Source of the DNA: Clostridiales bacterium
GTDB taxonomy: Bacteria > Bacillota > Clostridia > Saccharofermentanales > DTU023
Length of the DNA stretch: 64,000 nucleotides
Assembly (NCBI GenBank): GCA_028724525.1
Contig: JAQYCV010000033.1
Span: 36,290-100,289, forward strand
Direction of reading: 5' to 3'
Every line of letters begins with the position of its first letter. Positions within the stretch are counted from its first letter, which is position 1. A program made the position numbers and the translations under genes. This document shows positions 8,511 through 40,751 of the stretch, piece after piece. A model generated the notes under the pieces. That model saw only the letters and a program-made list of their open reading frames with translations. It had not been told where the DNA came from and did no database searches.

Positions 8511-8545
8511 CTCACTCCTTTGCTTGCCTATCAATATTGGGCCAC

Positions 8546-8575
8546 AAAAAACCGCCTAGCCCAAGGATAAGCGGT
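8546..8575 (-). terminator. Riboswitch expression-platform terminator
   Basis: Minus strand reads CCGCTTA-TCCTTGGGC-TAGGCGG followed by TTTTTT, between the THI-box aptamer and the thiX start. Confidence 0.6.
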
Positions 8576-8584
8576 CATAGGTAA

Positions 8585-8676
8585 AGTATGATCCCTACGT
8601 CGGCATTATCCGCATCAGGTTTGAGGGTCGGAAACGTAATGTCTCCCTCTCAGGCCCTAGGCCTCCCCTTGTTTAA
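8585..8676 (-). ncRNA. TPP (THI-box) riboswitch
   Basis: Minus strand reads GGGGAGGCCTAGGGCCTGAGAGGGAGAC...GACCCTCAAACCTGATGCGGATAATGCCGACGTAGGGA. This matches the conserved CUGAGA ... ACCUGAU..GGAUAAUGCC..CG.AGGGA core. Confidence 0.85.
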
Positions 8677-8734
8677 CTGTCCAAAATCTTAGCTTGGCTA
8701 CTTTATGATGTCAAGCCAGCCCTGGCCGCTCAAA

Positions 8735-9796: not shown

Positions 9797-9946
9797 AAGG
9801 GCCTCCTTTAGGGGCAAGTCAGCTTGCCCATGGCATACACTAGCCTAAGTATAGCATCGACCTTGCCATCTCACTAACCCCCGATAGATGGGCAGGCAAC
9901 TTGAAGTTAAGGCCCAAATTTGATATCTTTTGAAGGGTTTAGAGAT

Positions 9947-10043
9947 GGGAGCAGATGGGTGCTGGTGTGCCCCGCGGTCTTCAAAACCGTTGCGAGGGGT
10001 TAGAAGCTTCTCCGGTGGGTTCGATTCCCACGTGTTCCCGCCA
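9947..10043 (+). tRNA. selC: tRNA-Sec (anticodon UCA)
   Basis: 97 nt. It has a 6-bp D-stem with a 4-nt loop (GGGTGC-TGGT-GTGCCC), anticodon loop CTTCAAA (UCA), a long variable arm, T-arm GTGGG-TTCGATT-CCCAC, a long acceptor stem and an encoded GCCA end. Confidence 0.85.
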
Positions 10044-13812: not shown

Positions 13813-14399
13813 CCGGCCTTACGGGCCAGGTCAACCACCTGGTCGGGACCGCCAAAGAGACGTTCTAGCTCATCCTTGGTCGTTTTGGCCCCCTGTTTTT
13901 TCTGGACCACAATCATGAGCTTACCCCCTGGGTTGAGGGCCGCATGGGCTTCGGCAAAGAGCCGGTAAACCACGGTCTTGCCTGCCCGAATAGGCGGATT
14001 CAGGAAGATATAGTCAAACTTGAAAGGAACCTGGGAGAGGCCGTCTGACAGGTAAAACTGGGCATTTTGGCCCGGGCAGTTATTGTTAAAATTCTCCATG
14101 GCCTGGCGGAGGGCCCGCTCGTTGATATCGCAAAAGCTGAGCTGGGCCTGGGGGTAAAAGCTGGCCAGGATAGTCCCTACCGGCCCCCAGCCGCAGCCCA
14201 AGTCCAGGATCTGGCAGCCCGGCGGAAAATCGCCCAAGTCTAGGGCAGCCTCCAGCAATTGGCGAGAGCCAAAGTCTAGGCGGTTTCGGGAGAAGGTCCC
14301 TGCGTCACTAATAAAGCGAAAGACCTGGCCCTGGACTTCCTCTGTGAAAGCCCGGAGGCTGTGGGCAGCCTCCGGGTCTGGATCAAAATAGTGGGCCAT
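13770..14399 (-). CDS. Class I SAM-dependent methyltransferase (MTS / RsmC-like small domain)
   Basis: SAM motif LDLGCGWGPVG and an NPPIRAGK motif. Confidence 0.75.
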   Translation of the reverse strand: MAHYFDPDPEAAHSLRAFTEEVQGQVFRFISDAGTFSRNRLDFGSRQLLEAALDLGDFPPGCQILDLGCGWGPVGTILASFYPQAQLSFCDINERALRQAMENFNNNCPGQNAQFYLSDGLSQVPFKFDYIFLNPPIRAGKTVVYRLFAEAHAALNPGGKLMIVVQKKQGAKTTKDELERLFGGPDQVVDLARKAGYRVFLATKGIKAP

Positions 14400-14400
14400 C

Positions 14401-15009
14401 TTACTTGCTCTCTTTGCCCTCTACAGGGAATTTCGCTTTTTCTAAAGCCAGGACCACCCCCATGCCTAGAACATAAATGACTAGGGATTGGGAGAGGAAG
14501 ATAGAGGCGATAGATCCAATGATTTCCAGGGTAGTGGGCGTGTGCTCAAGGAGGAGATAGGGCAGGTAGGAACCTACAATGACGGCATTGAACAAGATGG
14601 GGGGAAAGAGCATGACAAAGCGCATAAAACGCTTTTTCCAGGTATTGGCCTCTATCTTGCTGTAGTCTGGCCGCCGCTCCGCCAGGATTATTCTCCGATA
14701 AGGCTTAGCCAGCCAATAGGTGGCCATGGCTGCAATGAGGGTAGCCAGACTACCGCCGAAGATATCAATAAGGCCCAAGTTATTGGGATTTAAGATATTC
14801 GACAAGAGGCAGCCCAGGAAGACACCCGGTATGGCCATAGAGCTAAAGGCAGGCATGACCGTTAAAACTTCAGCCAGGCGGAACTGCACCATGCCAAAGC
14901 TAAAGGAGGCAAAGGGCAGGCAAAGGACAACGTAGAGAGCGGCAACGATGCCGGCTATGGCTACGTTTAAGGGCTTGAGCTTAAATTTTGATGCTTTATT
15001 GTTTGACAT
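14401..15009 (-). CDS. queT: QueT family queuosine-precursor transporter (ECF S-component type)
   Basis: Polytopic, with the ...AALYVVL...FGMVQFRLAEVL... signature region of QueT proteins. Confidence 0.75.
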   Translation of the reverse strand: MSNNKASKFKLKPLNVAIAGIVAALYVVLCLPFASFSFGMVQFRLAEVLTVMPAFSSMAIPGVFLGCLLSNILNPNNLGLIDIFGGSLATLIAAMATYWLAKPYRRIILAERRPDYSKIEANTWKKRFMRFVMLFPPILFNAVIVGSYLPYLLLEHTPTTLEIIGSIASIFLSQSLVIYVLGMGVVLALEKAKFPVEGKESK

Positions 15010-18000
15010 TTTCTAAAATAATTTCCAATTCTTCTCCGTTGATATCCCAGGTCTGCTTCTGGTCACGCAGGTCAGCGGGAGCCTGGTCTAGGGGTAGGAT
15101 ATCTATACCTAGGACATCTGCTAAGAGGGCTTCCTTATGGTTTTCCACGATATGCCAGAGCTTGTCTGTACCGCCAAAGTAGAGCTTAATCCGGTCGGTC
15201 AAATCAAAGTCGGCATCCTTCCGCATGGTTTGAATCTTGGACACGATCTCGCGGAGGAAGCCTTCCTCAATCAGCTCAGGGCTCAGCGTGGTATCTAAGG
15301 CAACCGTTAGTCCGTAATCAGAAGCGGCGGCGTAGCCCTCTGCCTGCTGGTTTTCCACCAGGAGCTCTTCTTCGGTCAGAGTTTCAGGGCCTTCTGACAT
15401 ATGAATTTCAATGGCTCCCTTCTGTTTAAGCTCCTTGTAGGCTTTGACACCATCAAGTTCACTCAAAACTTCCTTAAGCTGGTTAAGGCGTTTGCCAAAG
15501 CGCTTACCCAGGAGCTTGAGCTGGGGTTTAAAGCGGTAGTCCTGGAGTTGGTCAGCGTCATCGGCTTTTTCCAGGCGTTTGACATTGAGCTCGTCTTCAA
15601 CCAATTTGGCAAAATCTTCTTTCAGATGGTCCCCGCCCACAATCAGCATGCGGGAGAGGGGTTGGCGGGTCTTGAGCTGAGATTGGGCCCGGGCAGTCCG
15701 GCCCAGGTTGACCAGCTTGAGGACAAGGTCCATCTGGTCTTCCACCTCTGGCTTAATGAGGCTTTCGTCCGCCTTGGGATAGGCGCAGAGGTGAACAGAT
15801 TCTGGAGCCGAGGGGTCTAGGCCTGCTACGAGGTTTTGGTAGATTAGCTCAGCCATGAAGGGGGTAAAGGGGGCGGACAGCTGAGCCAAGGTGACCAGGA
15901 CGGTGTAGAGGCATTGATAGGCATCTACCTTATCCTGGGGCATGCCAGCTACCCAATAGCGTTCCCGGTTGCGGCGGACATACCAATTGGAGAGGTCATC
16001 CACAAACTTTTCCAAGAGTTGGGTTGCCGTTAAGATATCAAACTTCTCCAAGCTCTGGGTGACCTGGACCACCAGGGTGTTGAGGCGGGAGAGAATCCAG
16101 CGGTCGATGACCTTGACCTTGTGGGGATCCCAGGGGTTGTCCTGGGGCTTGAACTGGTCAATTTCCGCATAGAGCACGTAGAAGGCATAGGTATTCCAGA
16201 GGGTGCCCATGAATTTACGCTTGTCTTCTTTGACCGCATCTAGAGAGAAGCGGGAGGGCAGCCAGGGCTGGCTATTGGAGTAGAAATACCAGCGGACCGC
16301 ATCCGCACCCTCGGAGTCAATGGCCTCCCAAGGATCCACCACATTGCCCTTGTGCTTGGACATTTTAATGCCGTCCTTGTCTTGGACGTGGCCCAGGACA
16401 ATACAGTTCTTGAAGGGCTCCTGCTCAAAGAGCAGGGTCGCTTCCGCCGTCAAGGAATAGAACCAGCCCCGGGTCTGGTCGACAGCCTCAGAAATGAAGT
16501 CAGCCGGGAAACGGTCCTTAAAGGTATCTTGATTCTTGAAGGGATAGTGCCACTGGGCATAGGGCATGGCCCCGGAGTCAAACCAGGCATCGGCCACCTC
16601 CGGGATCCGGGTCATAAGTTCGCCGCACTCTGGGCAGGTCAGGTGGACTGCGTCAATATAGGGGCGGTGGAGCTCAATTTCCTCCGGGCAGTCCGGTGAC
16701 ATGGCCTTGAGCTCCTCAATAGAGCCTACCACATGGTCGTGGCCATTGGGGCAGCGCCAGACCGGCAGAGGCATCCCCCAATAACGTTCGCGGGAAATGT
16801 TCCAGTCAATGACATTTTCCAGGAAATTGCCAAAGCGTTTTTCACCCAGGGTGGGGGGAATCCAGTTGACCTTTTGATTGTTAGCCACCAGCTCGTCCCG
16901 AACCTTGGTCATTTCAATAAACCAGGAGTTGCGAGCATAGTAGATGAGGGGGGTGTGGCAACGCCAGCAGAAGGGATAGGAGTGGTTATAGGCCTGGACC
17001 CGGATAAGCTTGCCCTGGTCCTTGAGCCAATCAATAATCTGCGGGTCTGCATCCTTGACAAAGAGTCCAGCAAAATCTGTAACCTCCGGGGGCATGGTCC
17101 CATCATCCCGCACAAACTGTACGAAGGGCAGGTCGCAGGCCTTGCCCAGGCGGTTATCGTCTTCACCAAAGGCTGGGGCGATATGGACAATACCCGTACC
17201 TTCGGTCGTTGTAACAAAGTCTGCCGTAGCAACATACCAGGCCTTCTTGCCAGACTTAGCCACAATATCCTCAGCATAGGAGAAGAGGGGCTCATAGGCT
17301 AAGCCTGCCAGGTCTTGGCCACTCAGTTCTTTCAGAACCCGGCCAGGATTTTCGCCAAAAACGGCTTCTTGCAGGTCTTTGGCCAGATAGTAGCGCCGGG
17401 TCTGGCCCTCTTCTTCCCGCTCCAAGAGGACATAGGTCACTTTAGGGTTTACAGCCAGGGCTAGGTTAGAAGGCAGGGTCCAGGGGGTAGTAGTCCAGGC
17501 CGCCAGGTAGGTATTGTCCTCACTCTTGACGGCAAAGCGGACATATATAGAGTTTTCTGTGACATCTTCATAGCCCTGGGCGACTTCATGACTGGCCAAG
17601 GCCGTGCCACAGCGGGGGCAGTAGGGCACAATGCGGTAACCCTCATAGAGGAGACCCTTTTCCCAGATCTTCTTCATGGCCCACCATTCAGACTCAATAT
17701 ATTCTTGGTCATAGGTGACATAGGGATGGTCCATATCCGCCCAGAAGCCGACCCGCTTGGACATCTCTTCCCATTCAGACTTATATTTCCAGACAGATTC
17801 CTTGCACTTCTCAACAAATTCTTCAATGCCATAGGCTTCAATCTGTTCCTTGCCTGAAATGCCCAGCATTTTTTCCACTTCAATCTCGACGGGCAGGCCA
17901 TGCGTGTCCCAGCCCGCCTTGCGCAGGACATTGTGGCCCTGCATGGATTTGAAACGTGGAATCAAGTCTTTGATGGCCCGGGTTAAAACGTGGCCAATAT

Positions 18001-18163
18001 GGGGTTTGCCATTGGCCGTAGGGGGGCCGTCATAAAAGGTATATTTGTCTGCGTCCTGGTGGAGCTTGACCTGCTTTTTAAAAATCTGCTGATCCTCCCA
18101 AAATTTGAGGATCTCTTCTTCCCTCTTTACAAAGTCTAGGGAGTTATCAACTTTACGGTACAT
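14996..18163 (-). CDS. ileS: Isoleucine--tRNA ligase, long (type-2-like) form
   Basis: 1055 aa with HIGH motif GKPHIGH and KMSKS motif KMSKHKGN. RBS GGAGG lies before the ATG, and a T-box leader lies upstream. Confidence 0.95.
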   Translation of the reverse strand: MYRKVDNSLDFVKREEEILKFWEDQQIFKKQVKLHQDADKYTFYDGPPTANGKPHIGHVLTRAIKDLIPRFKSMQGHNVLRKAGWDTHGLPVEIEVEKMLGISGKEQIEAYGIEEFVEKCKESVWKYKSEWEEMSKRVGFWADMDHPYVTYDQEYIESEWWAMKKIWEKGLLYEGYRIVPYCPRCGTALASHEVAQGYEDVTENSIYVRFAVKSEDNTYLAAWTTTPWTLPSNLALAVNPKVTYVLLEREEEGQTRRYYLAKDLQEAVFGENPGRVLKELSGQDLAGLAYEPLFSYAEDIVAKSGKKAWYVATADFVTTTEGTGIVHIAPAFGEDDNRLGKACDLPFVQFVRDDGTMPPEVTDFAGLFVKDADPQIIDWLKDQGKLIRVQAYNHSYPFCWRCHTPLIYYARNSWFIEMTKVRDELVANNQKVNWIPPTLGEKRFGNFLENVIDWNISRERYWGMPLPVWRCPNGHDHVVGSIEELKAMSPDCPEEIELHRPYIDAVHLTCPECGELMTRIPEVADAWFDSGAMPYAQWHYPFKNQDTFKDRFPADFISEAVDQTRGWFYSLTAEATLLFEQEPFKNCIVLGHVQDKDGIKMSKHKGNVVDPWEAIDSEGADAVRWYFYSNSQPWLPSRFSLDAVKEDKRKFMGTLWNTYAFYVLYAEIDQFKPQDNPWDPHKVKVIDRWILSRLNTLVVQVTQSLEKFDILTATQLLEKFVDDLSNWYVRRNRERYWVAGMPQDKVDAYQCLYTVLVTLAQLSAPFTPFMAELIYQNLVAGLDPSAPESVHLCAYPKADESLIKPEVEDQMDLVLKLVNLGRTARAQSQLKTRQPLSRMLIVGGDHLKEDFAKLVEDELNVKRLEKADDADQLQDYRFKPQLKLLGKRFGKRLNQLKEVLSELDGVKAYKELKQKGAIEIHMSEGPETLTEEELLVENQQAEGYAAASDYGLTVALDTTLSPELIEEGFLREIVSKIQTMRKDADFDLTDRIKLYFGGTDKLWHIVENHKEALLADVLGIDILPLDQAPADLRDQKQTWDINGEELEIILENVKQ

Positions 18164-18189
18164 ATTGCCTCCTGCCTGCCTAGTCTCCT

Positions 18190-18500
18190 AGGTCCTTATG
18201 TTTTTTGGGCAAAGAAAAACGCCCACACGGGGCGTGAAAATACGCGGTACCACCCGTTTCACCAAGCCAGTTTAGGTCTCTCAGACCTTCCTGCCGCTTG
18301 GCCTCTTGAGCCCTCATACGGTGGGCAACCGTCTGCACTTAATAGCCTCACTATAGCTTGATCGCTTACTATAACAAACTCGGCGTTCGGAGCAGCCGCT
18401 CGGGGCTGATTTTCGTATCCTGGGCCCTGCGCGCTGCTCTCACCCTCCAGCACTCGCTGTGGCCGCTACCAAGATCTACTCTTGCCCTTCATAGCGTTTA
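18190..18500 (-). ncRNA. T-box riboswitch leader (candidate Ile specifier AUC) with terminator
   Basis: The minus strand carries AACGGGTGGTACCGCG (T-box, 18243-18255 on plus). It is followed by the ACGCCC-CGTGT-GGGCGT hairpin and TTTTT (about 18212-18237). A stem-I-like AUGAAGGGCAAGAGUAG lies near 18495, and GAAAAUCAG contains AUC at 18408-18410. Confidence 0.8.
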
Positions 18501-18577
18501 TATGGGGGCTTTTGCGCTTCAGATGCGGTCTTCTGTCTTTTTAGAAAGACCTTATCCAGGCGAAAAAGCACGTCCAA

Positions 18578-18606
18578 AGTATACTAAACACAAGGGTAGC
18601 CGTCAA
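18578..18606 (-). promoter_or_regulatory. Candidate sigma-A promoter of the ileS leader
   Basis: Minus strand reads TTGACG, a 17-nt spacer, then TATACT. Confidence 0.4.
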
Positions 18607-18684
18607 AAATTTTAATCTTAGAGGCTACAAGTTGATCAGGCATAAAGCTTCGCATATGACCTTATGTACACGAAATCTTATCCG

Positions 18685-19329
18685 TCAGGAGATCTTATGT
18701 GTAGAGACAATAACCCCCCGTTCCCTCAGAACTAGGAAATACACCATAGCAAGGACAAAAAAGTGAAAAAGAATCGTCAGTCCTGCCTGGCTGAAATACC
18801 AGCTCATTTTTATTTGCTCATCTAAAAGGAGCGTTGGCCAGGCAAAGAGATTAGCTAGAGATACAGGCGGTTGGGTACAGATGATAATCCAGATCCATAG
18901 GGCCACTGTCCAGCGCCGACTATTATTAGACAAATTAATAATTTGGTCATACATTCCTAAAAATATAGAAATTATAATAAGCCAGCACATAAAGTGTAGG
19001 GCCCCTAACCACTCGATAGAAATATTGAGTGGGTAGGAAAGCAAGATACAACCTGCTCCAAGCACGACAATTTGAGGCACTAACTCCTGCAGTACATATT
19101 TTACGGAATACATCAGGTAATCTTTATAACTTTTTAGCCTGGGCAATAGAAAATTCAGTTCAAAACTATGGACAAACAGAAAGTAAATAAAAATAGGATA
19201 GAAAAGACGACCTGATACTCTCTGAAAAATATTGATCGTTCCTTTATCACCAAAATCTATGACATTGAAGATAAAGTAGCCTAGCCAAATGAGTAAGAAT
19301 TTATATCGATTAGCTTTTATGCTTTTCAT
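18685..19329 (-). CDS. Polytopic membrane protein, probable permease partner of the adjacent ABC ATPase
   Basis: 214 aa and AT-rich, with several hydrophobic segments. Its start overlaps the upstream ATPase gene by 20 nt. Confidence 0.5.
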   Translation of the reverse strand: MKSIKANRYKFLLIWLGYFIFNVIDFGDKGTINIFQRVSGRLFYPIFIYFLFVHSFELNFLLPRLKSYKDYLMYSVKYVLQELVPQIVVLGAGCILLSYPLNISIEWLGALHFMCWLIIISIFLGMYDQIINLSNNSRRWTVALWIWIIICTQPPVSLANLFAWPTLLLDEQIKMSWYFSQAGLTILFHFFVLAMVYFLVLRERGVIVSTHKIS

Positions 19330-19969
19330 GGTTATCCGGACAAGAGCTCCCTTTCTTGAGGGCTTCTATAGGCAAAATAGTATCAGCAATGTTTGTTATA
19401 TCTGCTTGATCATGGCTGGTAAAAATAATTGTTGTTTGTGGGCTCTTAAAATGCTTAAAAATATTTTGCACTAGCTCAACACTTTGCTCGTCTAGGGCAT
19501 TAAAAGGTTCATCCATAATCAAGTACTTAGGGTGTTCCATGAGTGCTTGAATAATTCTCATCTTTTGCTTCATACCCTGAGAGTAAGTTTTATAAGGCTT
19601 ATGGATAGCCTGGGTAAGACCCATTTGGTCTACCCACCATAAGACTTCTTTTTGATTAATTTTTTTGCGGATATTGGCCAGATACATAAGGCTGTCATAA
19701 CCTGTCCAGGCAGGCATAAATTCCGGCTGGTTAATGCTTACTCCCGCATCCTGAATAAAATCCACGTCGCGCCCTAGAACCTGTCCATCAATCAGGACTT
19801 GGCCGCTATCCGGTGTCATAAAACCTGTCATAAGGTTCAAGAGCACACTTTTGCCACTCCCATTTCTTCCGACAAGGCCATAGGCATGACCATCTAGAAA
19901 AGTGAAATTTATTTGGTGAAAAATTTCTTCATACTGAAAACTTTTACTAATATTGATCAACTGAATCAT
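19310..19969 (-). CDS. ABC transporter ATP-binding protein
   Basis: Walker A GRNGSGKS, signature YSQGMKQK, Walker B LIMDEP. Confidence 0.85.
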   Translation of the reverse strand: MIQLINISKSFQYEEIFHQINFTFLDGHAYGLVGRNGSGKSVLLNLMTGFMTPDSGQVLIDGQVLGRDVDFIQDAGVSINQPEFMPAWTGYDSLMYLANIRKKINQKEVLWWVDQMGLTQAIHKPYKTYSQGMKQKMRIIQALMEHPKYLIMDEPFNALDEQSVELVQNIFKHFKSPQTTIIFTSHDQADITNIADTILPIEALKKGSSCPDNHEKHKS

Positions 19970-19988
19970 AAGGGGGCTCTTTCTATTG

Positions 19989-20864
19989 CTATACTCTCAC
20001 TTTTGCATGCCGGATTTGATTACTTATGATAAGTCCCGAAGGTAATAGAGTAGGAATCAGCTGTAGAATAAAAAATGGTATAGTAGCTACATTTCTTATA
20101 GAATTAGGTATACATAGGCGAGCGGGCTCTAGATATTGTAGCAAAGTGTGTAGCCAAGACGGCATTATATTCATGCCACCTAAGCGATTAAAGAACAGAG
20201 TAAGCGCATAATAAGTTAATACAGTCACCAGAAGGACTTGATACCTCTTTTCAAACACAAGACCTAATGTGCTTCCCATAATTGAAAATAAAAAGGGAGC
20301 ATAGCCGTACTGTACACTGTAAACCATAAAATAGTAGAGCTTACGATGGTCAAAGTAAAAATCTACCCCGAAAAGATCTAAGAAAAGGCTCGCTCCGTTG
20401 GTACTTCTAGGGGGTAAGATGTCTGGCGCCCGTGCGATGCGTAGGCCCCTCTCCACATCCGCCGGCGTAGCAAATGCAATGTGCAGGAAGAAAATCAATA
20501 AGAAGGCGGCATAACAAGCCAGAGCAACATGCAAGCTATTCAGCAAAATATCATGCAGGACCAGCCCGCGATAAGTCCTAGTCCGAGGCGCTTTCAATGG
20601 CCAAAGATGTTTGCGGATAGAGACAAAAAGCATACCCGCTATCCCTCCATAGATCGGTCCTTGAAATTGGAAACTCTCATGCAAATGGAAGACAACCGAA
20701 TCAAAAGAGAAAGTTGATTGCAAAACCTCAGATACGTCTACAGCAGACCACTTAATTAGGAAGAAATTACGAGAAACAGCCAAAGAGATATAAAAATACA
20801 GCAACAGGCTGAGCATGATGAGAAAGAATGTCGTATCAAAGAATCTTTTTAGTTTAACTTTCAT
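19989..20864 (-). CDS. Polytopic membrane protein (permease-like)
   Basis: 291 aa and AT-rich, with multiple TM segments. First gene after the hairpins at 20.93-20.99 kb. Confidence 0.5.
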   Translation of the reverse strand: MKVKLKRFFDTTFFLIMLSLLLYFYISLAVSRNFFLIKWSAVDVSEVLQSTFSFDSVVFHLHESFQFQGPIYGGIAGMLFVSIRKHLWPLKAPRTRTYRGLVLHDILLNSLHVALACYAAFLLIFFLHIAFATPADVERGLRIARAPDILPPRSTNGASLFLDLFGVDFYFDHRKLYYFMVYSVQYGYAPFLFSIMGSTLGLVFEKRYQVLLVTVLTYYALTLFFNRLGGMNIMPSWLHTLLQYLEPARLCIPNSIRNVATIPFFILQLIPTLLPSGLIISNQIRHAKVRV

Positions 20865-20933
20865 TATTCAGCCTACTCAATTTTCTCTATGATCTAACTA
20901 TTAGTCTATCATATATAGTCTTGAAAATGTATT

Positions 20934-20958
20934 AGGCTTTAGCTCGGAGCTAAAGCCT
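20934..20958 (-). terminator. Intra-island hairpin (possible terminator or processing site)
   Basis: Perfect 11-bp stem AGGCTTTAGCT-CGG-AGCTAAAGCCT. A second perfect 8-bp hairpin, GGCAAAAT-GA-ATTTTGCC, lies at 20976-20993. The downstream T-tract is weak. Confidence 0.4.
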
Positions 20959-21055
20959 AGCCTTTCCTCATCTAGGGCAAAATGAATTTTGCCAGCGGCC
21001 GTGTGATGTGAGAAGACTATCTACAAGCCCAGCTAAATGCTCCCATATTGGAATA

Positions 21056-22936
21056 TTATTTCCTAAGCAATTTCTCCTCTTGGTAGCGATAGAGAACCGC
21101 ATATTCCCCGTTTTTATCTAGGAGTTCTTGATGCGAGCCTTCTTCAATTATTCTTCCATTCTCCAATAAAATTATTTTGTCAGCCGCATGAACATTTGTA
21201 AAATTATGACTTATCCATAGAACTATATGCTGACTTGCTTCTTGCTGTACCCATTTTAGAATTACTCTTTCTGACTTGATATCAACATTTGATGTTGGCT
21301 CATCCAAAATCAATACCTGATGTTTACGAAAAAACGCTCTTGAGAGAGCAAATTTTTGATTTTGCCCAACTGATAATTCAAGACCTTCGGAATCAAACAG
21401 CCTTGTAATATTGTGGTTCATACCTCGCTTTGCCTTATTAAAAAAATCGGTACATGCAGCGCTCTCCATTGCTTTTATCGCTCGTCTATCAAAATTTTCA
21501 CTGAATATCACACTTTTGCCTTCTTGTTGATCGTTAAGTGAAAATGCATTATCTGAAATCATATAATTCTCTCTTATAGAAAAAGGAAAATTTAGCATAT
21601 TCTGGAAGTACACTGAAAATCGTGATCGTAAGTGCTCTAAAGAGAATTTCCTTATATCAGTTCCATTTATTAGTATTCTTCCTTCAGTCGGGTCATAAAA
21701 ACGAAGAAGCAGCTTAATTAGTGTGCTTTTACCAGAACCATTTAGACCAACAAGTGCAATCGTCTCTTTACTATGAATATGTAAATTTATATCATCTAGC
21801 ACAAGTGGACTTTCATCATTATAGCGAAATGAGACATGTTCAAATTTTATTTCCTGAATTTGTTCCTCTAGCTCACAATCCCCATCTACAATTGTATTTT
21901 CATACGAGAAGAAAGATTGTAGATTTTTAAATTTAAGTCGATTTTCATATAGTGCAATAATTGAAATACCAATACCGCTCATTCCATTCCGTACTTGCAG
22001 AAATAAATTTGTATAAAACGTATAGTCTCCTACAGTATTTTGATGCTGTAAAACTCGCAGCGCTAAGTCTAAACTTATGCCGCAAAGAGAAACAATCGGA
22101 AGTATTTCAAAAATTACTAGATAAAGGTTTCTTTTTCTTAAGACATTTCTCCTCTCGTAAAATAATTTATTCCATATCGATTCATGTTTTTTCAAAACGT
22201 ATGATTTAGAATTGAAAAGTCTAAAGTCTTGAGCATAACGCTTATCAGATGATAGACTTTGCAACAAAGAAGATTCTCTACCCTCGTTAATCTGCGATAT
22301 GCTTAACTGATATAGTTGTTTAGTGAACGATAAGGAAATTATTACTGGCGGTGCATTCACCACTAGTAGTATCAATGCATAAACCGGGGTAACTCTAATA
22401 GCTAGAAAAATAGTTCCACCAATAGCAATTATAGAACTTAGAAAATTCAACACATACCAAACTTCTTCTGCTACAGCTTCTGAATCTCTGAATGAAGAAA
22501 CCAATTTATCATACCACTCGGGCTTATCGAAAAAAACCAAGTCCATTTTCATAGCATTTTCAATTTGCTGATGAATAATATGTTTTTTAATCAGTTCAGA
22601 ATGTTCATTTGTTGCATACTCTCTCCATCTATCTACTATTGTTAATATTAATAAAATCAATAGTGTCAAACTAAAAATGAATAGCAATCTATTTAGTGAT
22701 TTCTCAATATTACCTTGAACCAAAATGTCAATCACAAGCTTCCCTAAATAGGAAAGCACAAGTGGAATGAGAGGATTGACGCACTCTATAATAATTCTAG
22801 ATATTGTATATATTTTTGACGTCCTCCAAGACAAATCCATGCAATACTTTATTGTTTTGATGGTGCTTTCGAGCGCAGTCAAAATTTTTTTAGATTTATT
22901 GTTTATTAAATTTAGAATATTTAAGTACATAATCAC
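21056..22936 (-). CDS. ABC exporter, fused transmembrane and ATPase domains, no N-terminal C39 peptidase domain
   Basis: 626 aa. A six-TM-type N-terminal half begins within about 30 residues of the start. Walker A GLNGSGKST, signature LSVGQNQK, Walker B LILDEP. Confidence 0.85.
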   Translation of the reverse strand: MIMYLNILNLINNKSKKILTALESTIKTIKYCMDLSWRTSKIYTISRIIIECVNPLIPLVLSYLGKLVIDILVQGNIEKSLNRLLFIFSLTLLILLILTIVDRWREYATNEHSELIKKHIIHQQIENAMKMDLVFFDKPEWYDKLVSSFRDSEAVAEEVWYVLNFLSSIIAIGGTIFLAIRVTPVYALILLVVNAPPVIISLSFTKQLYQLSISQINEGRESSLLQSLSSDKRYAQDFRLFNSKSYVLKKHESIWNKLFYERRNVLRKRNLYLVIFEILPIVSLCGISLDLALRVLQHQNTVGDYTFYTNLFLQVRNGMSGIGISIIALYENRLKFKNLQSFFSYENTIVDGDCELEEQIQEIKFEHVSFRYNDESPLVLDDINLHIHSKETIALVGLNGSGKSTLIKLLLRFYDPTEGRILINGTDIRKFSLEHLRSRFSVYFQNMLNFPFSIRENYMISDNAFSLNDQQEGKSVIFSENFDRRAIKAMESAACTDFFNKAKRGMNHNITRLFDSEGLELSVGQNQKFALSRAFFRKHQVLILDEPTSNVDIKSERVILKWVQQEASQHIVLWISHNFTNVHAADKIILLENGRIIEEGSHQELLDKNGEYAVLYRYQEEKLLRK

Positions 22937-23059
22937 TCTTTTGTTTAGTTATCAACTGTTACCTTATAGCACGCGAATATATTTCGCGCCTCGACTCTGC
23001 ACGTATCAATCTGGTTCGTATCATGTAGTAATCTATTCATTTTTACACTGTCAACTCTC

Positions 23060-24256
23060 TCATGACTGGTATCTCTTTAATAGATGTGACCCAGCTGTAA
23101 TGAAAAGGATCGATAGCGCAATGAGTAAAAGCAGGCTGCTCCAATAGCCAAATCCTAAATCTCCAATAAGTAGTTCCGAGATTTGAATAAAAGAAAATGG
23201 ATTGAATGGCTCTGGAACAATGACCAGACAAGATAAGAAGCCAACACAGATTACCGTCCCACCGGAATCTTTCAGAATGAGTGACAACAAATTTGTCAGC
23301 GAGAAAAGAAAAATAGAAACGCACGTATATATGATATAATAATATTTTATATAACTCCAAATTGATACGCTCTTTAGGCTGGAGAAGGCTAATTCAGGTG
23401 AAAATCGAACAAACAAACGTTCAAATATTCGCGGATTGATTAGCACCGAGATATCAGATCCGGGTCCACCCATAAATAATGCCACAGCACTCGGCAAAAA
23501 TAGCAAGAGACTCACGAAAATAAGTGTGATTAACAGCTTCACAATCACTTTGGAATAGTATATTTCTCTACATGGGTACGGTTGGGTTAATAGAAGGCGT
23601 ATCCCCCCCGATGTAAATTCTACGGCCCAGTTATTTGCGTTGATAATAACAACAAAAAACATGGCAAACAATGTAAACAGTGGAAAACTAATTGTATAAT
23701 GTAAAATTGAATTTGTCTGAGCTTTATCGCTGAAAGACTCTCCTAGAGCTAAGCTTCCTTTGTTCTTAACCAATCTTGCATATAAATTGCGAATATCAGT
23801 ATTATAAATATAATCCTCATGAATCAGATTAATCTTCTTCTTATAGATTTTTTCGTAAGCAAAATTGTCCATATCTACGATGGTTTTCTTTATATTGGTG
23901 TACTGCTGAGCTCTATGCTGATTGAACATTTCCAGTTTTTCCTGAAACATATAATACTTGAGTAAGACATCACTTTCGAATTGGTAGAGCTCTGCTTGTT
24001 TTGCCAATTCATCAGTTGGATTTTGCTGATTTGCTTTTTTTACCAAGGTATATAGATTCTGCGTAAATTCGTATGCTAACCAAAGTTTCTCTTTTTCAGC
24101 TGCTGCTAACGCTTCGCTTCTCTTCGGGAGGTCACGCTGAATTTGTTCAAACGTAGATAGAATGGCTATGCAGAACAGTACTAAAACTACAATAATTGAG
24201 AGCAAGAACCTTTTACTGATACTCTTTGTTAAATCTGCAAGAATTAAATTTTTCAT
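23060..24256 (-). CDS. ABC-2-type permease with a large extracytoplasmic helical insert
   Basis: 398 aa: TM1, then a charged region of about 170 aa, then a TM bundle. Contains an ABC-2-like ...EFTSGGIRLLLTQPYPCREIYYSK... segment. Confidence 0.6.
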   Translation of the reverse strand: MKNLILADLTKSISKRFLLSIIVVLVLFCIAILSTFEQIQRDLPKRSEALAAAEKEKLWLAYEFTQNLYTLVKKANQQNPTDELAKQAELYQFESDVLLKYYMFQEKLEMFNQHRAQQYTNIKKTIVDMDNFAYEKIYKKKINLIHEDYIYNTDIRNLYARLVKNKGSLALGESFSDKAQTNSILHYTISFPLFTLFAMFFVVIINANNWAVEFTSGGIRLLLTQPYPCREIYYSKVIVKLLITLIFVSLLLFLPSAVALFMGGPGSDISVLINPRIFERLFVRFSPELAFSSLKSVSIWSYIKYYYIIYTCVSIFLFSLTNLLSLILKDSGGTVICVGFLSCLVIVPEPFNPFSFIQISELLIGDLGFGYWSSLLLLIALSILFITAGSHLLKRYQS

Positions 24257-24257
24257 T

Positions 24258-25160
24258 CTAACTGGCTATGATTATTTCTTTATATATCTCTTCAAGCGAT
24301 TTATAGGATTTCTTTATTTCGGATATTCTGATCTTTTTGTTTAAAATGACCATCAATAAGTCATTTAGTTCGTCCTCGGTGAGATCACAATGTAAGAGTA
24401 CCGTTTTATGCGAATCTGTTTTCTTTGAGCAATTGTATCCCAGGTCTTTAAGAGTCGCTTCGAGTTTCAACATATCCTCTGTATAAATATCATATCCTCT
24501 ACTCGCTTGTTCTTGGGAAATAGCGCCATCGAATATGACTTTCCCATCGTTAATCATAATTACTCTGTCAGATATCTTCTCTAATTCAGACAGCAAATGT
24601 GAGGAGATTAAAATGCCCATTCCCTGATCTTTTAGGTGACATAGTTCTTCACGAAGCTGAAAAACTCCATCAGGATCCAGCCCATTCATTGGTTCATCTA
24701 AAATAATTAAATGGGGTTTTGGCATTAGGACCATTGTTACTATCAATCTCATTTTCATGCCAGTGGAATAAGTAGAGACTCTACTGTGAAGAGCTTCACC
24801 TAATTTTGAGAACACTTCTGCCTCAGTTATTCGTGTTTTAGGCAATTTTCTCCACTGCGCAATCAACTTGATATGATCCGCGCCCGTCAGTTCGGGATAT
24901 AGAGCAGGACTTTCGATGCTTGCACCGAGTAACATTAAAGCATTAACTCGATCCTCCCTAATATTGTGATTCTCAATGCTTATATCTCCAGAATCAAACG
25001 GAAGTAAACCACAAATACACTTCATTGCTGTTGACTTTCCAGCGCCGTTAGGTCCAAGAAGACCAACAATTTCAGACTGATTTACTTGAAAGCAAAGATT
25101 CTGAAGAACCGACTTATGACCAATCCTTTTATTAAGATTGCAAACTGAAAGTAATGACAT
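24258..25160 (-). CDS. ABC transporter ATP-binding protein (ABC-2 / LanF-like subfamily)
   Basis: Walker A GPNGAGKST, signature YSTGMKMR, Walker B IILDEP. 1-nt gap to the permease gene. Confidence 0.9.
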   Translation of the reverse strand: MSLLSVCNLNKRIGHKSVLQNLCFQVNQSEIVGLLGPNGAGKSTAMKCICGLLPFDSGDISIENHNIREDRVNALMLLGASIESPALYPELTGADHIKLIAQWRKLPKTRITEAEVFSKLGEALHSRVSTYSTGMKMRLIVTMVLMPKPHLIILDEPMNGLDPDGVFQLREELCHLKDQGMGILISSHLLSELEKISDRVIMINDGKVIFDGAISQEQASRGYDIYTEDMLKLEATLKDLGYNCSKKTDSHKTVLLHCDLTEDELNDLLMVILNKKIRISEIKKSYKSLEEIYKEIIIAS

Positions 25161-25171
25161 AATTCACTACC

Positions 25172-26521
25172 CTATGACTTATCGCTAATGTACTCAACAT
25201 TAGTTATTCCAAGTCTATTAAATGAGAACAGCAATTTTTCAATCAATTTTTTCTTCTGCTCTTCGCAGCTAAGGTTTTTCTTCTCTCGTCGCCTCAATGG
25301 GCAGTGGCCACCCATACATATTGGAAGGAAATTGCATTTCTTACACTGATTATTACTCAACGGATTGAAAAGTAAATATTCATAGTAATTATTATTATTT
25401 CTTCTATCTTCGCCAACATTATTAATGTTGCCAATTATAGCACTTGACTTTCCGATCTCTTCCCAGCATTTGCACAGGTTACCAAGCGGGTCAATCACAA
25501 AGGAATTAAACTTATCACAAGTACACGCACTTGTAATCCTGTTAGGATAAAAGTATGAAAACTCAACCTCTTTGCCATATACATTTTCAAGTGTTGTTAT
25601 GAATTTGCGTTCGAATTCTGAAAATTCATTTTCCGTTAAAGTATATTTATTCTCTGTGTCATTGTTATCAAAAACACGCGCGACATAAGGATAGACATAA
25701 TTGAGTATTTCTTCTTTATATAGTAAATCAAGCACATTTATCATAGACTGATAATTTTTTCGTGTAGAGTTTAACCTAAGAGCAATGTTGGGAAGAATTG
25801 AATGTTTTGTATCATAGAGGTCTTTCAAATTCTTCAAATTATAAATAATTTTATCAAAAGTAACCGCTCCATTTACATGTCTTCGCGTTATATCGTGATA
25901 ATGAACATCTCCATCTAAAGGTATTTGAATTGATTGTATTTTAAGATCAACGAGGGTCTTAAAAGTATAATTGTCCAAAAGGTAGCCGTTTGTTGTGATA
26001 CCACTTCTATAATTAATATTATTTTTATCACATATATCTATTAGTTCACTTGAAATGGCATTGATCTTATCCATTGCCAACAGCGGTTCCCCACCATACC
26101 AGCTTATTGATAGCATTTTGAGATTCTGGACATTTTGTTTAACGAAGCTCACAATACCATCCATTACAGAATCAGTAATATTACCCCGTTTTCGAGATCC
26201 TCTTTCAAAACAATAGGGGCAATTAAAGTTACAGTCGAGAGTTGGAGCAATTGTTATTCCTAAGCTATTATTCCCAAATTTCGCATTATACATATCAATT
26301 TGAAGCTGCTTAAGCTCATCAAATTGATTCTCAATAATTATTCCTCCATACAACATGTCCTTCTTGACAGTATCGTCTAGCAGATCAATGTATTCTTCAT
26401 CATTATTAATAAAATTTTCAGCAACACCGTCAGGAAACTCCGCCAATGCATTACTAAATGCATTATATACATAGAACTTTTCCGGTCCTCTAAAGTAGTG
26501 ATTAAATATGGATTTTTTCAT
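25172..26521 (-). CDS. Radical SAM / SPASM-domain peptide-modifying enzyme (sactisynthase/ranthisynthase-like)
   Basis: 449 aa with a CNFNCPYC (CX3CX2C) radical-SAM cluster motif. The C-terminal Cys-rich extension reads ...ACTCDKF...GNLCKCWEE...CKKCNFLPICMGGHCP.... Confidence 0.9.
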   Translation of the reverse strand: MKKSIFNHYFRGPEKFYVYNAFSNALAEFPDGVAENFINNDEEYIDLLDDTVKKDMLYGGIIIENQFDELKQLQIDMYNAKFGNNSLGITIAPTLDCNFNCPYCFERGSRKRGNITDSVMDGIVSFVKQNVQNLKMLSISWYGGEPLLAMDKINAISSELIDICDKNNINYRSGITTNGYLLDNYTFKTLVDLKIQSIQIPLDGDVHYHDITRRHVNGAVTFDKIIYNLKNLKDLYDTKHSILPNIALRLNSTRKNYQSMINVLDLLYKEEILNYVYPYVARVFDNNDTENKYTLTENEFSEFERKFITTLENVYGKEVEFSYFYPNRITSACTCDKFNSFVIDPLGNLCKCWEEIGKSSAIIGNINNVGEDRRNNNNYYEYLLFNPLSNNQCKKCNFLPICMGGHCPLRRREKKNLSCEEQKKKLIEKLLFSFNRLGITNVEYISDKS

Positions 26522-26524
26522 AGC

Positions 26525-27928
26525 TCACCTATAATTCTTATACATAGTCAATTTAGCTAACAATATTATTCCCACTATTGAAATTGCCAATAAAAATATT
26601 GCATGGAACCAGGTAAACTGCTCTGCTCCCAGAGTGATGTTCCACCCGTTAGCAACCGCAAAAGGATTGAAATAGTTTAATCTAGATCGTATGTTCTTTT
26701 GTTCAAAGAAAAAAATGCAGAACGATAGTGCAGCAACCACAACTATACGGTATTTGGACTTCATCACAGTCAGAACGACACTTGTGGATAATACAACAAT
26801 AAAAGTGACTTTCAAGAAATCAACCGTCGCGGCTCTAAGGAAGAACTCGGCAAATCTAACTGACATAAAGTCACTATAGCTGAGATTCGAAATAGTATTG
26901 TGTGCACCGTATGGCACATACAACAATTGAGACAACCCAATGTATCTAGTCGAAAAAATACCATTAGTCTGACCAAGTGAATGAAATGTGTTGTATCCTC
27001 GTCGAATAACAACCATATCCGTATTCCAATTGTAAGGTTTTCCAAGCAGTAAAGCCAAGGCACAGCTAACAATTTGAGGAATGTAATAAAAAAACAAAGA
27101 TATAAAGTAGGTTATAAAAAAAAGATGCAGAAAGCTGTGAAATCTTTTTTGTGGTAACATGAAAATATTATTAATATAGCCGGAATTAGAAATTTTAAAT
27201 ATATAATACGCTACTAAAACAGGGCAAACTGTTAAGAGAACTAGCCTTGGCTGAAAAGCTCCCCGTACGGAATTTTTTGACATTAACCTCATGAGAAAAT
27301 AATATATATTAAAATCGTTAGTCGGTTCAACGCGATCAGAAAAGTAATTATCAATCGCTCTTTCAGCCATCAACGCCAGATGTGCATATTCCACATCAGA
27401 CTTCTTTGCGTCATTACTTGCGATATCATCAAAGTCTTTAATTATATAAGGGTAACGAATAGTAGCCAAGAACGCTTTAATCTTTTCAGGATACAAGGTG
27501 TAAACATTTGGTTTTTCGTCTGTGTTATCGGTGAAAAACTGAGCCGCCAAAAGGTACTCTAGTGCATTTGTAGAGTTTGCATCACTCAGTTTTTGCTCAA
27601 AACTGTTCTTTTTTTCCAACTGATTTAGTGCTGTCATCACTTTACTTGTCTGGTAATCATAATTCGCTTCAAATCTTTCCATAAATTCGTCACCGCGACT
27701 CTTAGCTAATAGTCTCGCTCGACTTATCCAATAGCCTTTGCCTCTAATGTTTGAACTTATATGGTCACGATAAATTTCCTTCTGATGCTCAAATACTGAT
27801 GGGGACTGTACGTACAGATATAGAACCCAAGCAATAAAAAACATCAGAAGGACAAAAAATACGCGTCGAAGCGTTTTGTCACGAAAAAGCACAGACAATT
27901 CAAGACGTTTAAGAAAAAAAATATTCAT
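26525..27928 (-). CDS. Polytopic membrane protein, ABC-2-permease-like with a large N-terminal extracytoplasmic domain
   Basis: 467 aa: TM1, then a soluble region of about 190 aa, then a TM bundle. Its start lies 6 nt after the stop of the small Cys-rich ORF. Confidence 0.5.
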   Translation of the reverse strand: MNIFFLKRLELSVLFRDKTLRRVFFVLLMFFIAWVLYLYVQSPSVFEHQKEIYRDHISSNIRGKGYWISRARLLAKSRGDEFMERFEANYDYQTSKVMTALNQLEKKNSFEQKLSDANSTNALEYLLAAQFFTDNTDEKPNVYTLYPEKIKAFLATIRYPYIIKDFDDIASNDAKKSDVEYAHLALMAERAIDNYFSDRVEPTNDFNIYYFLMRLMSKNSVRGAFQPRLVLLTVCPVLVAYYIFKISNSGYINNIFMLPQKRFHSFLHLFFITYFISLFFYYIPQIVSCALALLLGKPYNWNTDMVVIRRGYNTFHSLGQTNGIFSTRYIGLSQLLYVPYGAHNTISNLSYSDFMSVRFAEFFLRAATVDFLKVTFIVVLSTSVVLTVMKSKYRIVVVAALSFCIFFFEQKNIRSRLNYFNPFAVANGWNITLGAEQFTWFHAIFLLAISIVGIILLAKLTMYKNYR

Positions 27929-27934
27929 TCCGGA

Positions 27935-28108
27935 TTATTCAGGACTGTGGATGGGACCAGACGGACAATACGTGTGATAATAGCAATTATGCGGACAATA
28001 ACTAGTACACAATCCACAAACATCAAGAGGGCAATCTCTTACACACAGATAGCATCCACTCGGTGAAATCGGGTTCTTGTTTTTCGGTTCTACCAAAAAT
28101 TTCATCAT
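27935..28108 (-). CDS. Candidate RiPP precursor peptide (57 aa, 8 Cys), absent from the ORF track
   Basis: GAGAGGAG lies 6 nt upstream of ATGATG. Translation: MMKFLVEPKNKNPISPSGCYLCVRDCPLDVCGLCTSYCPHNCYYHTYCPSGPIHSPE. First gene of the block containing the rSAM/SPASM enzyme. Confidence 0.7.
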   Translation of the reverse strand: MMKFLVEPKNKNPISPSGCYLCVRDCPLDVCGLCTSYCPHNCYYHTYCPSGPIHSPE

Positions 28109-28376
28109 TATCAGCTCCTCTCTTGTTAGTTTTAACTACATATAGAATAACATACATTTATTCGATTTCCAATAGCTATTTTCACATGAATAAAATGGGA
28201 ATCTAATATTCCTACTCTGTTCCGCTAACACTGTGCTGTCGATTTATCTGTCCATACATTGACATTTACTATTCGGAACTTAGACCCTTGAGTTGATCTT
28301 CAACATTAACTACAATCAACTGAGTTATATTAATTTGACATATTTACCGCTCAAAGGTCATTCAAGACAGGCTATC

Positions 28377-29090
28377 ATGATGGATTTACAATTTTCACAG
28401 GACATGCACCAGCTGGAAGTTTTGAGGAAGGCGACTCAGGTCGGAAAAATCCAGTTTTATAAGAACACCTTTCACCAAAGGAATACTTATCTTCGTCTGC
28501 ATCTGGACAAGCTGAGCCCAGAAGAAGCAGTCCTAGTCCTACTAACCTGTCGGGAAAAATGCGACACACCCTTGCAAGTCATGCTTGATGCAGGCGCGGA
28601 GCAATCCGAAGAAGTTTTGCTTAAAGCTGGCTTTCGCTTAGTGCGCCATTGTATCCTTGGCGATTTCAGTCAAACAGACCTAGCCGGCCCCCTAATCTCG
28701 AGCACAACAGTGGCATCTATCTCGATTAAAGAAAAGGACTCTCTGGTATTTTCACAAGCTCTGTTTGCTTATTATTGTAAAAATCATACAGATATTAATC
28801 CCTGGACCGGGAGTTTTGGAGATTTCTGTGACATTCTACCTGAGACTATTCTCTACGATCAGGATCTTCCTCTCAACTTTGCTTATATCGAAAATAACGA
28901 GATCGCCTATTGCCACGGTACGGGTGACGAAAGCTTCCAGCGTTTTAGCCAAAGCCTGGTCAGCCGGCTATTTAATCAATATGACCGCATCTACTTTGAA
29001 GCTGATGATAATGATCCCTATGCCTTGATATTATTAGGCTTATTCCGGCCCAAGGAACTTGATTACTGTAACACTTTTATTCTGGATTAG
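28377..29090 (+). CDS. Hypothetical protein
   Basis: Long ORF divergent from the RiPP block. The ATG at 28377 is preferred over the TTG at 28293. I do not recognise any motif. Confidence 0.4.
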   Translation: MMDLQFSQDMHQLEVLRKATQVGKIQFYKNTFHQRNTYLRLHLDKLSPEEAVLVLLTCREKCDTPLQVMLDAGAEQSEEVLLKAGFRLVRHCILGDFSQTDLAGPLISSTTVASISIKEKDSLVFSQALFAYYCKNHTDINPWTGSFGDFCDILPETILYDQDLPLNFAYIENNEIAYCHGTGDESFQRFSQSLVSRLFNQYDRIYFEADDNDPYALILLGLFRPKELDYCNTFILD

Positions 29091-29106
29091 CTGAAATACG
29101 ATATCG

Positions 29107-29739
29107 CTATAGTTCTTTCCTCATTTGCTTATCGATCCAGCTTAAAAGCTCTGCCAGGGAGTGACGGCGGGACCGGGCACATTCTGGGGCGGGCCGATCA
29201 CAGAGAAAGCATGTACGGGGGGGCAGACCGAGCTCTTCCCGGCTGAGGGGGCCAGCTTGGCTGAAAACATCAAGGTCGTAGAGGCGGCCTAAGGGTTTCT
29301 CCTCCAGTTCTACCATGCGGCGCTTGACCTGGACGGCGGGCAGGGGGCTGGCTAAGAAATATTCTGGACCCGTTGGCAGGTCAGGCAAGCTTTCCTCCCA
29401 GTCCCTGTCCCCTTCCGGGAGGCTAGTCCGGATATCCTGAAGGCCCCGGGCAAAAAGGGCCTGGATGCTGTCATTATTCTTGACTTGACCGGGGATGTTG
29501 AGCTTGAAGCAAACCACTGTCAGATGGCTTTTTAATAAGCTTTGAATATGCAAAACTCGGGCTTCTCGGCGGACCAGAACGTCTGCCAAGCTGGGCTGGC
29601 TCCCCTGCTGAAAGCCCTGGGGGATAGTCGCAGCATGGGCTGTCGCTGTGGAGTTCCGAGAGAAGTCTTCCCGGCCTCCGGGAGGATTGTTCATGGCAGG
29701 ATCGGTCTCCTTTCTGAGGAAGAACGCTTGAGCCTTCAA
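29107..29739 (-). CDS. citX: Citrate lyase holo-[acyl-carrier-protein] synthase (apo-citrate lyase phosphoribosyl-dephospho-CoA transferase)
   Basis: The C-terminal ...RLYDLDVF...CFLCDRPAPECARSRRHSLAELL... pattern is characteristic of CitX. The true start may be the internal Met 15 codons downstream. Confidence 0.65.
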   Translation of the reverse strand: MKAQAFFLRKETDPAMNNPPGGREDFSRNSTATAHAATIPQGFQQGSQPSLADVLVRREARVLHIQSLLKSHLTVVCFKLNIPGQVKNNDSIQALFARGLQDIRTSLPEGDRDWEESLPDLPTGPEYFLASPLPAVQVKRRMVELEEKPLGRLYDLDVFSQAGPLSREELGLPPRTCFLCDRPAPECARSRRHSLAELLSWIDKQMRKEL

Positions 29740-40720: not shown

Positions 40721-40751
40721 TGAGAATCCAGAAAACCGAACGAGTATGGCC

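Follow-up and report, generated by a model that had tools for sequence, protein, structure and literature searches.

Background

Cys-rich peptides modified by radical S-adenosylmethionine (rSAM) enzymes with a SPASM domain are the closest described counterparts of the locus reported here, a six-gene cassette in a stretch of 64,000 nucleotides from a Clostridiales bacterium (GenBank assembly GCA_028724525.1, contig JAQYCV010000033.1, positions 36,290 to 100,289 of the forward strand). The whole of this stretch is referred to as the window, and positions are counted from its first letter. We estimate a probability of about 70% that the locus is a production-plus-immunity cassette, of low-G+C origin, for a ribosomally synthesised and post-translationally modified peptide (RiPP). 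The cassette is new and rare; it is related to the curated Clo7bot family but lies outside it, and it is of a kind that has been catalogued but not chemically studied.

Clo7bot (peptide model TIGR04333, maturase model TIGR04334, gene name ctpM) is known from Clostridium botulinum and Paraclostridium bifermentans plasmids, and its maturase model is the best-scoring one for the window maturase. The tandem arrays of Cys-rich peptides in C. botulinum, Paraclostridium and others belong to this family, and on the Paraclostridium plasmid locus RefSeq annotates Clo7bot peptides and ctpM from electronic evidence only. Clo7bot peptides have a leader of the form MK[FY][ILV]xxP followed by a Cys-rich core, as does the MKFLVEP peptide of the window, and in both cases an rSAM/SPASM enzyme is found with ATP-binding cassette (ABC) transporters nearby. 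However, the window maturase is about 34% identical to its Clo7bot counterpart and scores 280.2 bits, far under the cut-off of 600. Clo7bot loci hold 7 to 10 tandem peptides of 35 to 55 aa, whereas the window has one precursor of 56 aa, whose core contains eight Cys and CP motifs and is followed by a C-terminal tail, and the annotated Paraclostridium locus does not have the pair of ABC-2-type permeases and the ATPase of the window.

The closest solved structure to the window maturase is CteB, the enzyme of the SCIFF peptide thermocellin. Both enzymes act, or would act, on a Cys-rich precursor, and CteB has the RiPP recognition element (RRE), rSAM barrel and SPASM domain with two auxiliary clusters to which the window enzyme is likened below. 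The two differ in that identity is about 20% (E 9e-15, the best of the solved proteins by sequence) and the SCIFF maturase model TIGR03974 gives 73.3 bits against a cut-off of 425; the SCIFF peptide model TIGR03973 gave no match for the window precursor. SCIFF loci are usually two-gene, housekeeping-like pairs, in contrast to the mobile cassette with a putative immunity pump in the window. PapB, the freyrasin maturase, is likewise an rSAM/SPASM thioether former and acts on repeated Cys motifs, and its model (NF047865) gives 116.7 bits on the window maturase. This is under the cut-off of 340, and the window core differs in having no regular C-x3-D repeat and a different leader. CteB and PapB are ranthipeptide synthases and the nearest characterised enzymes, which at about 20% identity makes them a lead only.

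For the transport genes, the comparison is with the LanFEG and LanT proteins of lantibiotic loci: an ATPase and two related permeases for self-protection, beside a separate fused exporter. The window ATPase differs in scoring 197.2 bits on the lantibiotic-protection ATPase TIGR03740 (its best NCBIfam model; cut-off 309.75), and the permeases miss the MutE/MutG models and have a large loop after the first transmembrane (TM) helix. The exporter differs from many LanT proteins in having no C39 protease.

The six-gene cassette

The unit under study is a cassette at 21056 to 28108 with the order precursor, membrane protein of about 470 aa of ABC-2-like type, rSAM/SPASM maturase, ATPase, ABC-2 permease and fused exporter. 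The features of the locus are listed below with the evidence for each.

27935..28108, minus strand: precursor peptide gene, 57 aa (ribosome-binding site, codon-change pattern, leader motif)
26525..27928, minus strand: second ABC-2-type permease subunit, 467 aa (profile-profile match, topology)
25172..26521, minus strand: rSAM/SPASM peptide maturase, 449 aa, with RRE-like N-terminal domain (PF04055, TIGR04085, AlphaFold2 model)
24258..25160, minus strand: ABC ATPase, 300 aa, partner of the two ABC-2-type permeases (PF00005)
23060..24256, minus strand: ABC-2 family permease, 398 aa (PF12679)
21056..22936, minus strand: fused ABC exporter with transmembrane and nucleotide-binding domains, 626 aa, without C39 (PF00664 and PF00005)
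20933..20959, minus strand: terminator-like hairpin with 12-bp stem, closing the six-gene operon (terminator scan)
28109..28292, no strand assigned: putative promoter region of the precursor operon, common to a divergent 265-aa ORF (sequence, palindrome)
18685..20864, minus strand: adjacent ABC trio of a 291-aa membrane protein, a 219-aa ATPase and a 214-aa membrane protein

The cassette recurs in five other lineages. L002 (maturase 77% identical) has the same six genes in this order, and so do L005 and L006 (42-43%), which are uncultured gut Clostridiales. In L004 and L092 (maturase 47-48%) the order is precursor, membrane protein, ATPase, permease, second precursor, maturase and exporter.

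In the ORF listing, nine co-directional minus-strand ORFs with tight spacing fill 18685 to 28108. The first-pass annotation, which was made by a model from the sequence of the window, had counted ten, while its own gene list also comes to nine; its coordinates and strand were confirmed for every gene listed. This island has a G+C content of 0.362 compared to 0.517 in the rest of the window. All of its 1-kb windows are at or below 0.43, whereas those outside have a mean of 0.518 (sd 0.043), and the spot counts given earlier (16/60 in the line starting at 25201, 34/60 in the line starting at 17041) are exact. Ordinary housekeeping genes flank the island, ileS on one side and citX with the citrate lyase ligase gene on the other. 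The strongest terminator-like site in a scan of 18100-29200 was the hairpin at 20933-20959, past the stop codon of the exporter and before the gene that follows.

The low-G+C block is a composite of a window-specific part and a part common to a sister genome (L085/L086, ileS 92% identical). The sister genome has the order citC-citX-trio-ileS, with trio proteins of 276, 219 and 214 aa, and no RiPP genes. By blastn it aligns to window positions 13788-20828 at 85.5% and again from 29123 on, which leaves about 20830-29106 as window-specific; this segment comprises the six-gene cassette and the divergent 265-aa ORF. When L085 6737-7337 and L086 are compared with this segment, the junction falls within the first 12 or so codons of the 291-aa gene, whose sister version is the one of 276 aa. 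Because the sister genome carries the trio and not the cassette, we read the trio as older resident DNA outside the mobile cassette. All other cassettes are without it, and in L002 an unrelated ATPase and two ABC2_membrane_6 proteins take its place. The earlier proposal of three ABC systems as a single island unit therefore has to be narrowed to the six genes, since the third system is resident in a genome without RiPP genes and is absent from homologous cassettes or swapped for unrelated transporters. The membrane proteins of the trio matched no family, and no relation between them and the ABC-2 family could be detected; the trio is possibly another peptide-resistance pump.

The 265-aa ORF (28293-29090, plus strand) was considered as a peptidase or tailoring enzyme and rejected, as it had no match in Pfam, NCBIfam or PDB and stands beside no other cassette. 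In agreement with the first-pass annotation, the cluster has no conserved association with a peptidase, a regulator or a second tailoring enzyme.

The precursor peptide

The small Cys-rich ORF is a real precursor gene and is conserved, and the ribosome-binding site GAGGAG stands 6 nt ahead of it. Its second ATG, at 28105, is the start used by homologues and gives a 56-aa product beginning MKFLVEP. The peptide consists of a leader of about 18 residues, a core of 30 residues with 8 Cys in the pattern C-x2-C-x3-CP-x3-C-x2-C-x3-CP-x2-C-x5-CP, and a tail of 9 residues. Public gene calls on the identical contig (window 27925-28157 corresponds to L001 5235-5467) miss this gene and place ORFs of 44 and 32 aa in other frames. 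Because of these automatic calls the frame was checked against the L002 homologue, which is 75% identical and keeps 8/8 Cys. Codon changes in the precursor frame were 20 synonymous and 14 non-synonymous, compared to 2/31 and 0/32 in the other two frames, and within the 30-residue core 13 of the 18 nucleotide changes fell at third positions. The L002 gene calls give the neighbouring membrane gene an extended N-terminus, and this extension overlaps the precursor.

Homologues of the precursor lie in every related cassette, as single copies in L002, L005 and L006 and as two separated copies in L004, and also in L092, so that the small Cys-rich ORF travels with homologous loci. The L002 peptide starts with MKYLVEP, and those of L005 and L006, which are 77-78 aa long, with MKYLVNP. 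Number and spacing of Cys differ among the homologues. A word-index search of 5.8 billion proteins with the precursor gave no candidate, and HMMER against 1.84 billion proteins gave one representative, P0241, which is 53% identical.

The putative promoter region of the precursor operon contains an imperfect palindrome, TTTATTCG...CATGAATAAA, at 28157-28194. The palindrome has no conserved counterpart ahead of the L002 precursor, and there is no gene for a regulator close by; in the comparison with L002 no promoter or operator conservation was found beyond about 40 nt next to the ribosome-binding site.

The maturase

The 449-aa protein belongs to the rSAM/SPASM peptide maturases and is nearest to the thioether-forming ones, and its earlier assignment to this class stands on motifs, models and structure matches. 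It has the CNFNCPYC motif (C97, C101, C104), and the two domain models proposed as a check are both above cut-off: PF04055 (Radical_SAM) with 53.8 bits against 29.5 in Pfam, and TIGR04085 (SPASM) with 43.9 against 27 in NCBIfam. The SPASM motif reads C333..G347-x4-C352..C393-x2-C396-x5-C402-x4-C407..C419, where the final spacing is x4 compared to the canonical x3. The CX3CX2C motif and all seven SPASM Cys (C333, C352, C393, C396, C402, C407, C419) are invariant in 28 homologues.

After TIGR04334, the next family models are TIGR04463 (241.9 bits, cut-off 525), CefB (NF038107; 207.4, cut-off 600), FlmE/OhkG (168), geopeptide (162) and PapB. These best models are all maturases of Cys-rich peptides, and the enzyme reaches the curated cut-off of none. 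We rejected an identity as an anaerobic sulfatase-maturating enzyme (anSME) or cofactor maturase: the anSME model TIGR03942 gives 70.3 bits (cut-off 349.45) compared to 280 on the Clo7bot maturase model, and no sulfatase gene is in the cassette. By these model scores, and with CteB as the best solved relative, the enzyme does not cluster with anSME or cofactor-type rSAM enzymes.

An AlphaFold2 model from the alignment of 28 homologues had a predicted local distance difference test score (pLDDT) of 87 and a predicted template-modelling score (pTM) of 0.86. Residues 7-58 are modelled as three strands and three helices in the layout of an RRE. The top Foldseek match was CteB over the full length (456-466 columns, the RRE of CteB included; E 5e-19, TM-score 0.66-0.71), followed by anSME, SuiB, TigE, ChlB and SkfB, with EpeE also among the structural matches. 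The maturase models as a CteB-like enzyme with an RRE-like domain, rSAM barrel and full SPASM domain.

At E<=1e-10 the maturase has 1,482 homologues, which form a large unclassified cloud. Its nearest relatives score 259-354 bits on TIGR04334 and are all below every equivalog cut-off. With the maturase as a single query sequence, a scan of species-representative genomes returned nothing, and in a profile scan of the same genomes the best match was 42-43% identical. The representative of the host species, if present, is without the cluster.

Leader motif and the relation to Clo7bot

The leaders at 79 loci with related maturases in species-representative genomes were surveyed, with motif counts taken over 83 loci and 41,834 small-ORF starts. 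The motif M-x-[FYW]-[ILV]-x-x-P occurred 119 times among these starts. In 98 of the 119 occurrences, spread over 45 of the 83 loci, the ORF was Cys-rich, co-directional with the rSAM gene and at most 5 kb from it. On these counts the motif is the hallmark of substrates throughout the rSAM clade. The set includes bona fide Clo7bot peptides above the TIGR04333 cut-off of 31 bits, and three positive controls (L022, L038 and L018) scored 35-60 bits on that model.

TIGR04333 gave no match to the window precursor at E<=0.01 and none to the L002 homologue at E<=1, and the L004 homologue reached 9.4 bits. In seeing no resemblance of the precursor to a named family, the first-pass annotation was therefore half right: the peptide fails the Clo7bot cut-off, but its leader is the one that Clo7bot peptides have.

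Related maturases are also found in human-gut Collinsella (L024-L083, dozens of genomes) together with short, leader-bearing, Cys-rich peptides that start with MNWVIDP or MSWIVKP. These loci suggest that the Clo7bot-like clade is common in the gut microbiome.

Transport and putative immunity genes

The 467-aa protein had no match in Pfam or NCBIfam. A profile built from its five homologues was compared with the ABC-2 permease family by hhalign and matched over the C-terminal TM domain with a probability of 96.8% (E 2.5e-10). Its topology is one TM helix, a loop of about 190 aa and five TM helices, the same as that of the 398-aa permease. We read it from these comparisons as a paralogue of the 398-aa protein. 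The earlier label of permease-like was accordingly right as to type, an ABC-2-type permease, and wrong in treating the protein as a separate component. The 398-aa permease matches PF12679 (ABC2_membrane_2) with 38.6 bits (cut-off 27.2) and is conserved in L002, L004, L005 and L006. Neither permease has an NCBIfam match. The ATPase is kept in all cassettes at 46-76% identity, and the membrane-protein, ATPase and permease genes are contiguous in L004 and L092. The LanFEG-like component proposed in the first-pass annotation is present, as one ATPase with two related permeases, and an export function stands beside it.

The 626-aa exporter resembles MsbA, HlyB and bacteriocin ABC proteins, under all cut-offs. 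The absence of a C39 domain was confirmed, as Pfam finds only ABC_membrane and ABC_tran and 123 nt separate the gene from the one upstream. L002, L005 and L006 keep it as the 3'-most gene of the cassette, and in L004 it follows the rSAM gene.

The L002 species is also represented by three metagenomic contigs (L089-L091), whose flanks are 94-99% identical to L002. Compared to L002 8028-15770, the corresponding segment (about 5900-9800 in each) has three separate deletions within the cassette, which remove the promoter and precursor, maturase codons of about 27-403, and the entire exporter. The membrane-protein, ATPase and ABC-2 permease genes remain as uninterrupted ORFs, and the variant looks like an 'immune non-producer' genotype. 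If three deletions hit three of nine genes at random, this outcome would be expected about 1 time in 84, as an illustrative calculation.

Horizontal origin

The cassette has a G+C content of 0.35 in a host of 0.52, both in the window and in L002, and it occupies a different chromosomal site in L002, between rplS and a GTPase gene. In L004 (1-21335) and L092 it has MobC/relaxase genes on one side and, on the other, a LanM lanthipeptide cluster that includes a response regulator, a setting which is a bacteriocin-rich mobile element. Because of the low G+C content, the different site in L002, the absence from the sister genome and the relaxase beside the L004 cassette, we judge from sequence comparison that the cassette was horizontally acquired from a low-G+C donor. 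No flanking direct repeats, integrase or tRNA were found at the island ends, and the points where the match to the sister genome breaks off do not form a clean target duplication.

Discussion

On the reading that we favour, of a RiPP cassette with its own immunity, the MKFLVEP leader of the 56/57-aa precursor would be bound by the RRE-like domain of the maturase. The enzyme would then reductively cleave S-adenosylmethionine and abstract hydrogen atoms from core residues, and several of the eight core Cys would be joined to the resulting carbon positions as intramolecular thioethers of sactionine or ranthionine type. The fused ABC exporter would secrete the product in the role of LanT. The short leader may be retained or may be cut by a host protease, as no dedicated leader protease is encoded. 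The 300-aa ATPase and the 467-aa and 398-aa permeases would form a LanFEG-like pump that protects the producer. Antimicrobial activity and the division of labour between the transporters are our inference from this gene content.

Several points weigh against this reading. Thioether formation is argued from the analogy with CteB and PapB and from the Cys-richness of all the substrates. In the searchable literature we found no chemically characterised member of the Clo7bot/TIGR04463/CefB clade, and the thioether claim therefore stands on analogy; the general papers on sacti- and ranthipeptides do not treat the clade. The N-terminal domain is RRE-like by its predicted fold, and the Pfam PqqD model gave no match there. 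A leader protease and a regulator are absent from the cassette, and the two transport systems could have each other's role. The deletion variants have a membrane-protein gene without a canonical ATG, and non-synonymous changes in their ABC-2 permease are about as frequent as synonymous ones; because of this, their retained genes are no more than suggestive of selection on immunity.

The eight-Cys, CP-rich core may be matured into an undescribed cross-link type or topology, for example a densely knotted poly-thioether or a mixed thioether/metal-binding peptide, which would make a new RiPP class whose recognition would go through a heptapeptide leader of unusual shortness at the N-terminus. Such a product is possible because the clade, with more than 1,400 homologues at E<=1e-10, appears uncharacterised, and we give it a small but appreciable chance.

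The peptide could instead be a signal of quorum-sensing type or a metal-binding peptide, with ABC systems that serve for export or import only and no bacteriocin involved. In clostridia a link has been drawn between quorum sensing and SCIFF-type ranthipeptides, eight Cys could chelate a metal, and the locus encodes no immunity proteins other than transporters. On the other hand, there are two transport systems, one with LanFEG architecture and an ATPase whose best match is the lantibiotic-protection family, and neither a receptor kinase nor a regulator is present. Furthermore, the deletion variants keep just the LanFEG-like system after losing the production genes, and the presence/absence polymorphism in close relatives, together with the mobile element and lanthipeptide cluster of L004, is typical of bacteriocin loci. 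We regard a signalling or metal-binding role as unlikely.

It is rather doubtful that the locus is a RiPP locus in which the rSAM/SPASM enzyme introduces a modification other than Cys thioethers, such as C-C or C-O cross-links, epimerisation or Cys oxidation, leaving the cysteines as disulfides or metal ligands. SPASM maturases of the same fold catalyse many reactions (SuiB, TigE, ChlB, EpeE and anSME are among the structural matches), the close relatives are uncharacterised and the nearest homologues are all under curated equivalog cut-offs. However, the sole common feature of the hypervariable cores across the clade is their Cys-richness, and the best characterised matches in sequence and fold are thioether formers, namely CteB and, with 117 bits on its model, PapB.

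Decay of the cluster to a non-functional remnant of transferred DNA would agree with its foreign composition, the large deletions in related strains and its absence from the sister genome. It is nonetheless very improbable, since all six ORFs run their full length from a start codon and are closely spaced, the catalytic Cys are intact, the precursor has the pattern of purifying selection and the operon has a ribosome-binding site and a terminator. The idea that the 57-aa ORF is not a substrate at all but a miniature ferredoxin-like Fe-S protein feeding electrons to the rSAM enzyme, prompted by its eight Cys, two C-x2-C-x3-CP elements and a Pfam Fer4 score of 23.1 bits (cut-off 21.1), was rejected as scarcely credible, because the match covers positions 11-23 of 24 without a complete CxxCxxCxxxCP motif, occurs in 2 of 6 family members with variable Cys spacing and number, and leaves the N-terminal leader common to tandem, hypervariable Clo7bot-type peptides as the conserved part, which fits substrates rather than redox proteins.

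Other features of the window

Upstream of ileS there is a T-box leader at 18225-18501 on the minus strand, with 88.2 bits just below the Rfam gathering score of 93. The nearest named relatives of the window ileS are about 60% identical and come from metagenome-assembled genomes of Saccharofermentanales, Fastidiosipila and Eubacteriales.

A second low-G+C patch, at 2500-5500 (0.37-0.43), holds an Abi_2 protein of abortive-infection-like type (2727-3767) and an unassigned 271-aa ORF (4085-4900), with a tRNA-Ser at 3887-3978 between them; it may be a small defence islet. A third patch at 40602-42300 encodes a putative surface protein of 454 aa with an LPATG sortase-type motif. About 130 nt of it (40602-40735) are 75% identical to L085 6891-7014, which is intergenic DNA at the empty site, and this match suggests a short dispersed repeat. 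The window also has a thiamine pyrophosphate (TPP) riboswitch at 8575-8679 and a tRNA-Sec gene at 9947-10043, and therefore the organism uses selenocysteine.

Conclusions

The cassette adds a rare and formerly unannotated branch to the Cys-rich peptides modified by rSAM enzymes, with one precursor relative among 1.84 billion representative proteins. The deletion variants that keep the pump, together with the empty site of the sister genome, provide a genetic argument that separates the genes for making the peptide from the protective ones. With six genes in a compact arrangement the cassette should be easy to refactor for heterologous expression, and the structure of its product would be the first chemistry described within the Clo7bot-like clade, whose members are spread widely among gut Clostridia and Collinsella.

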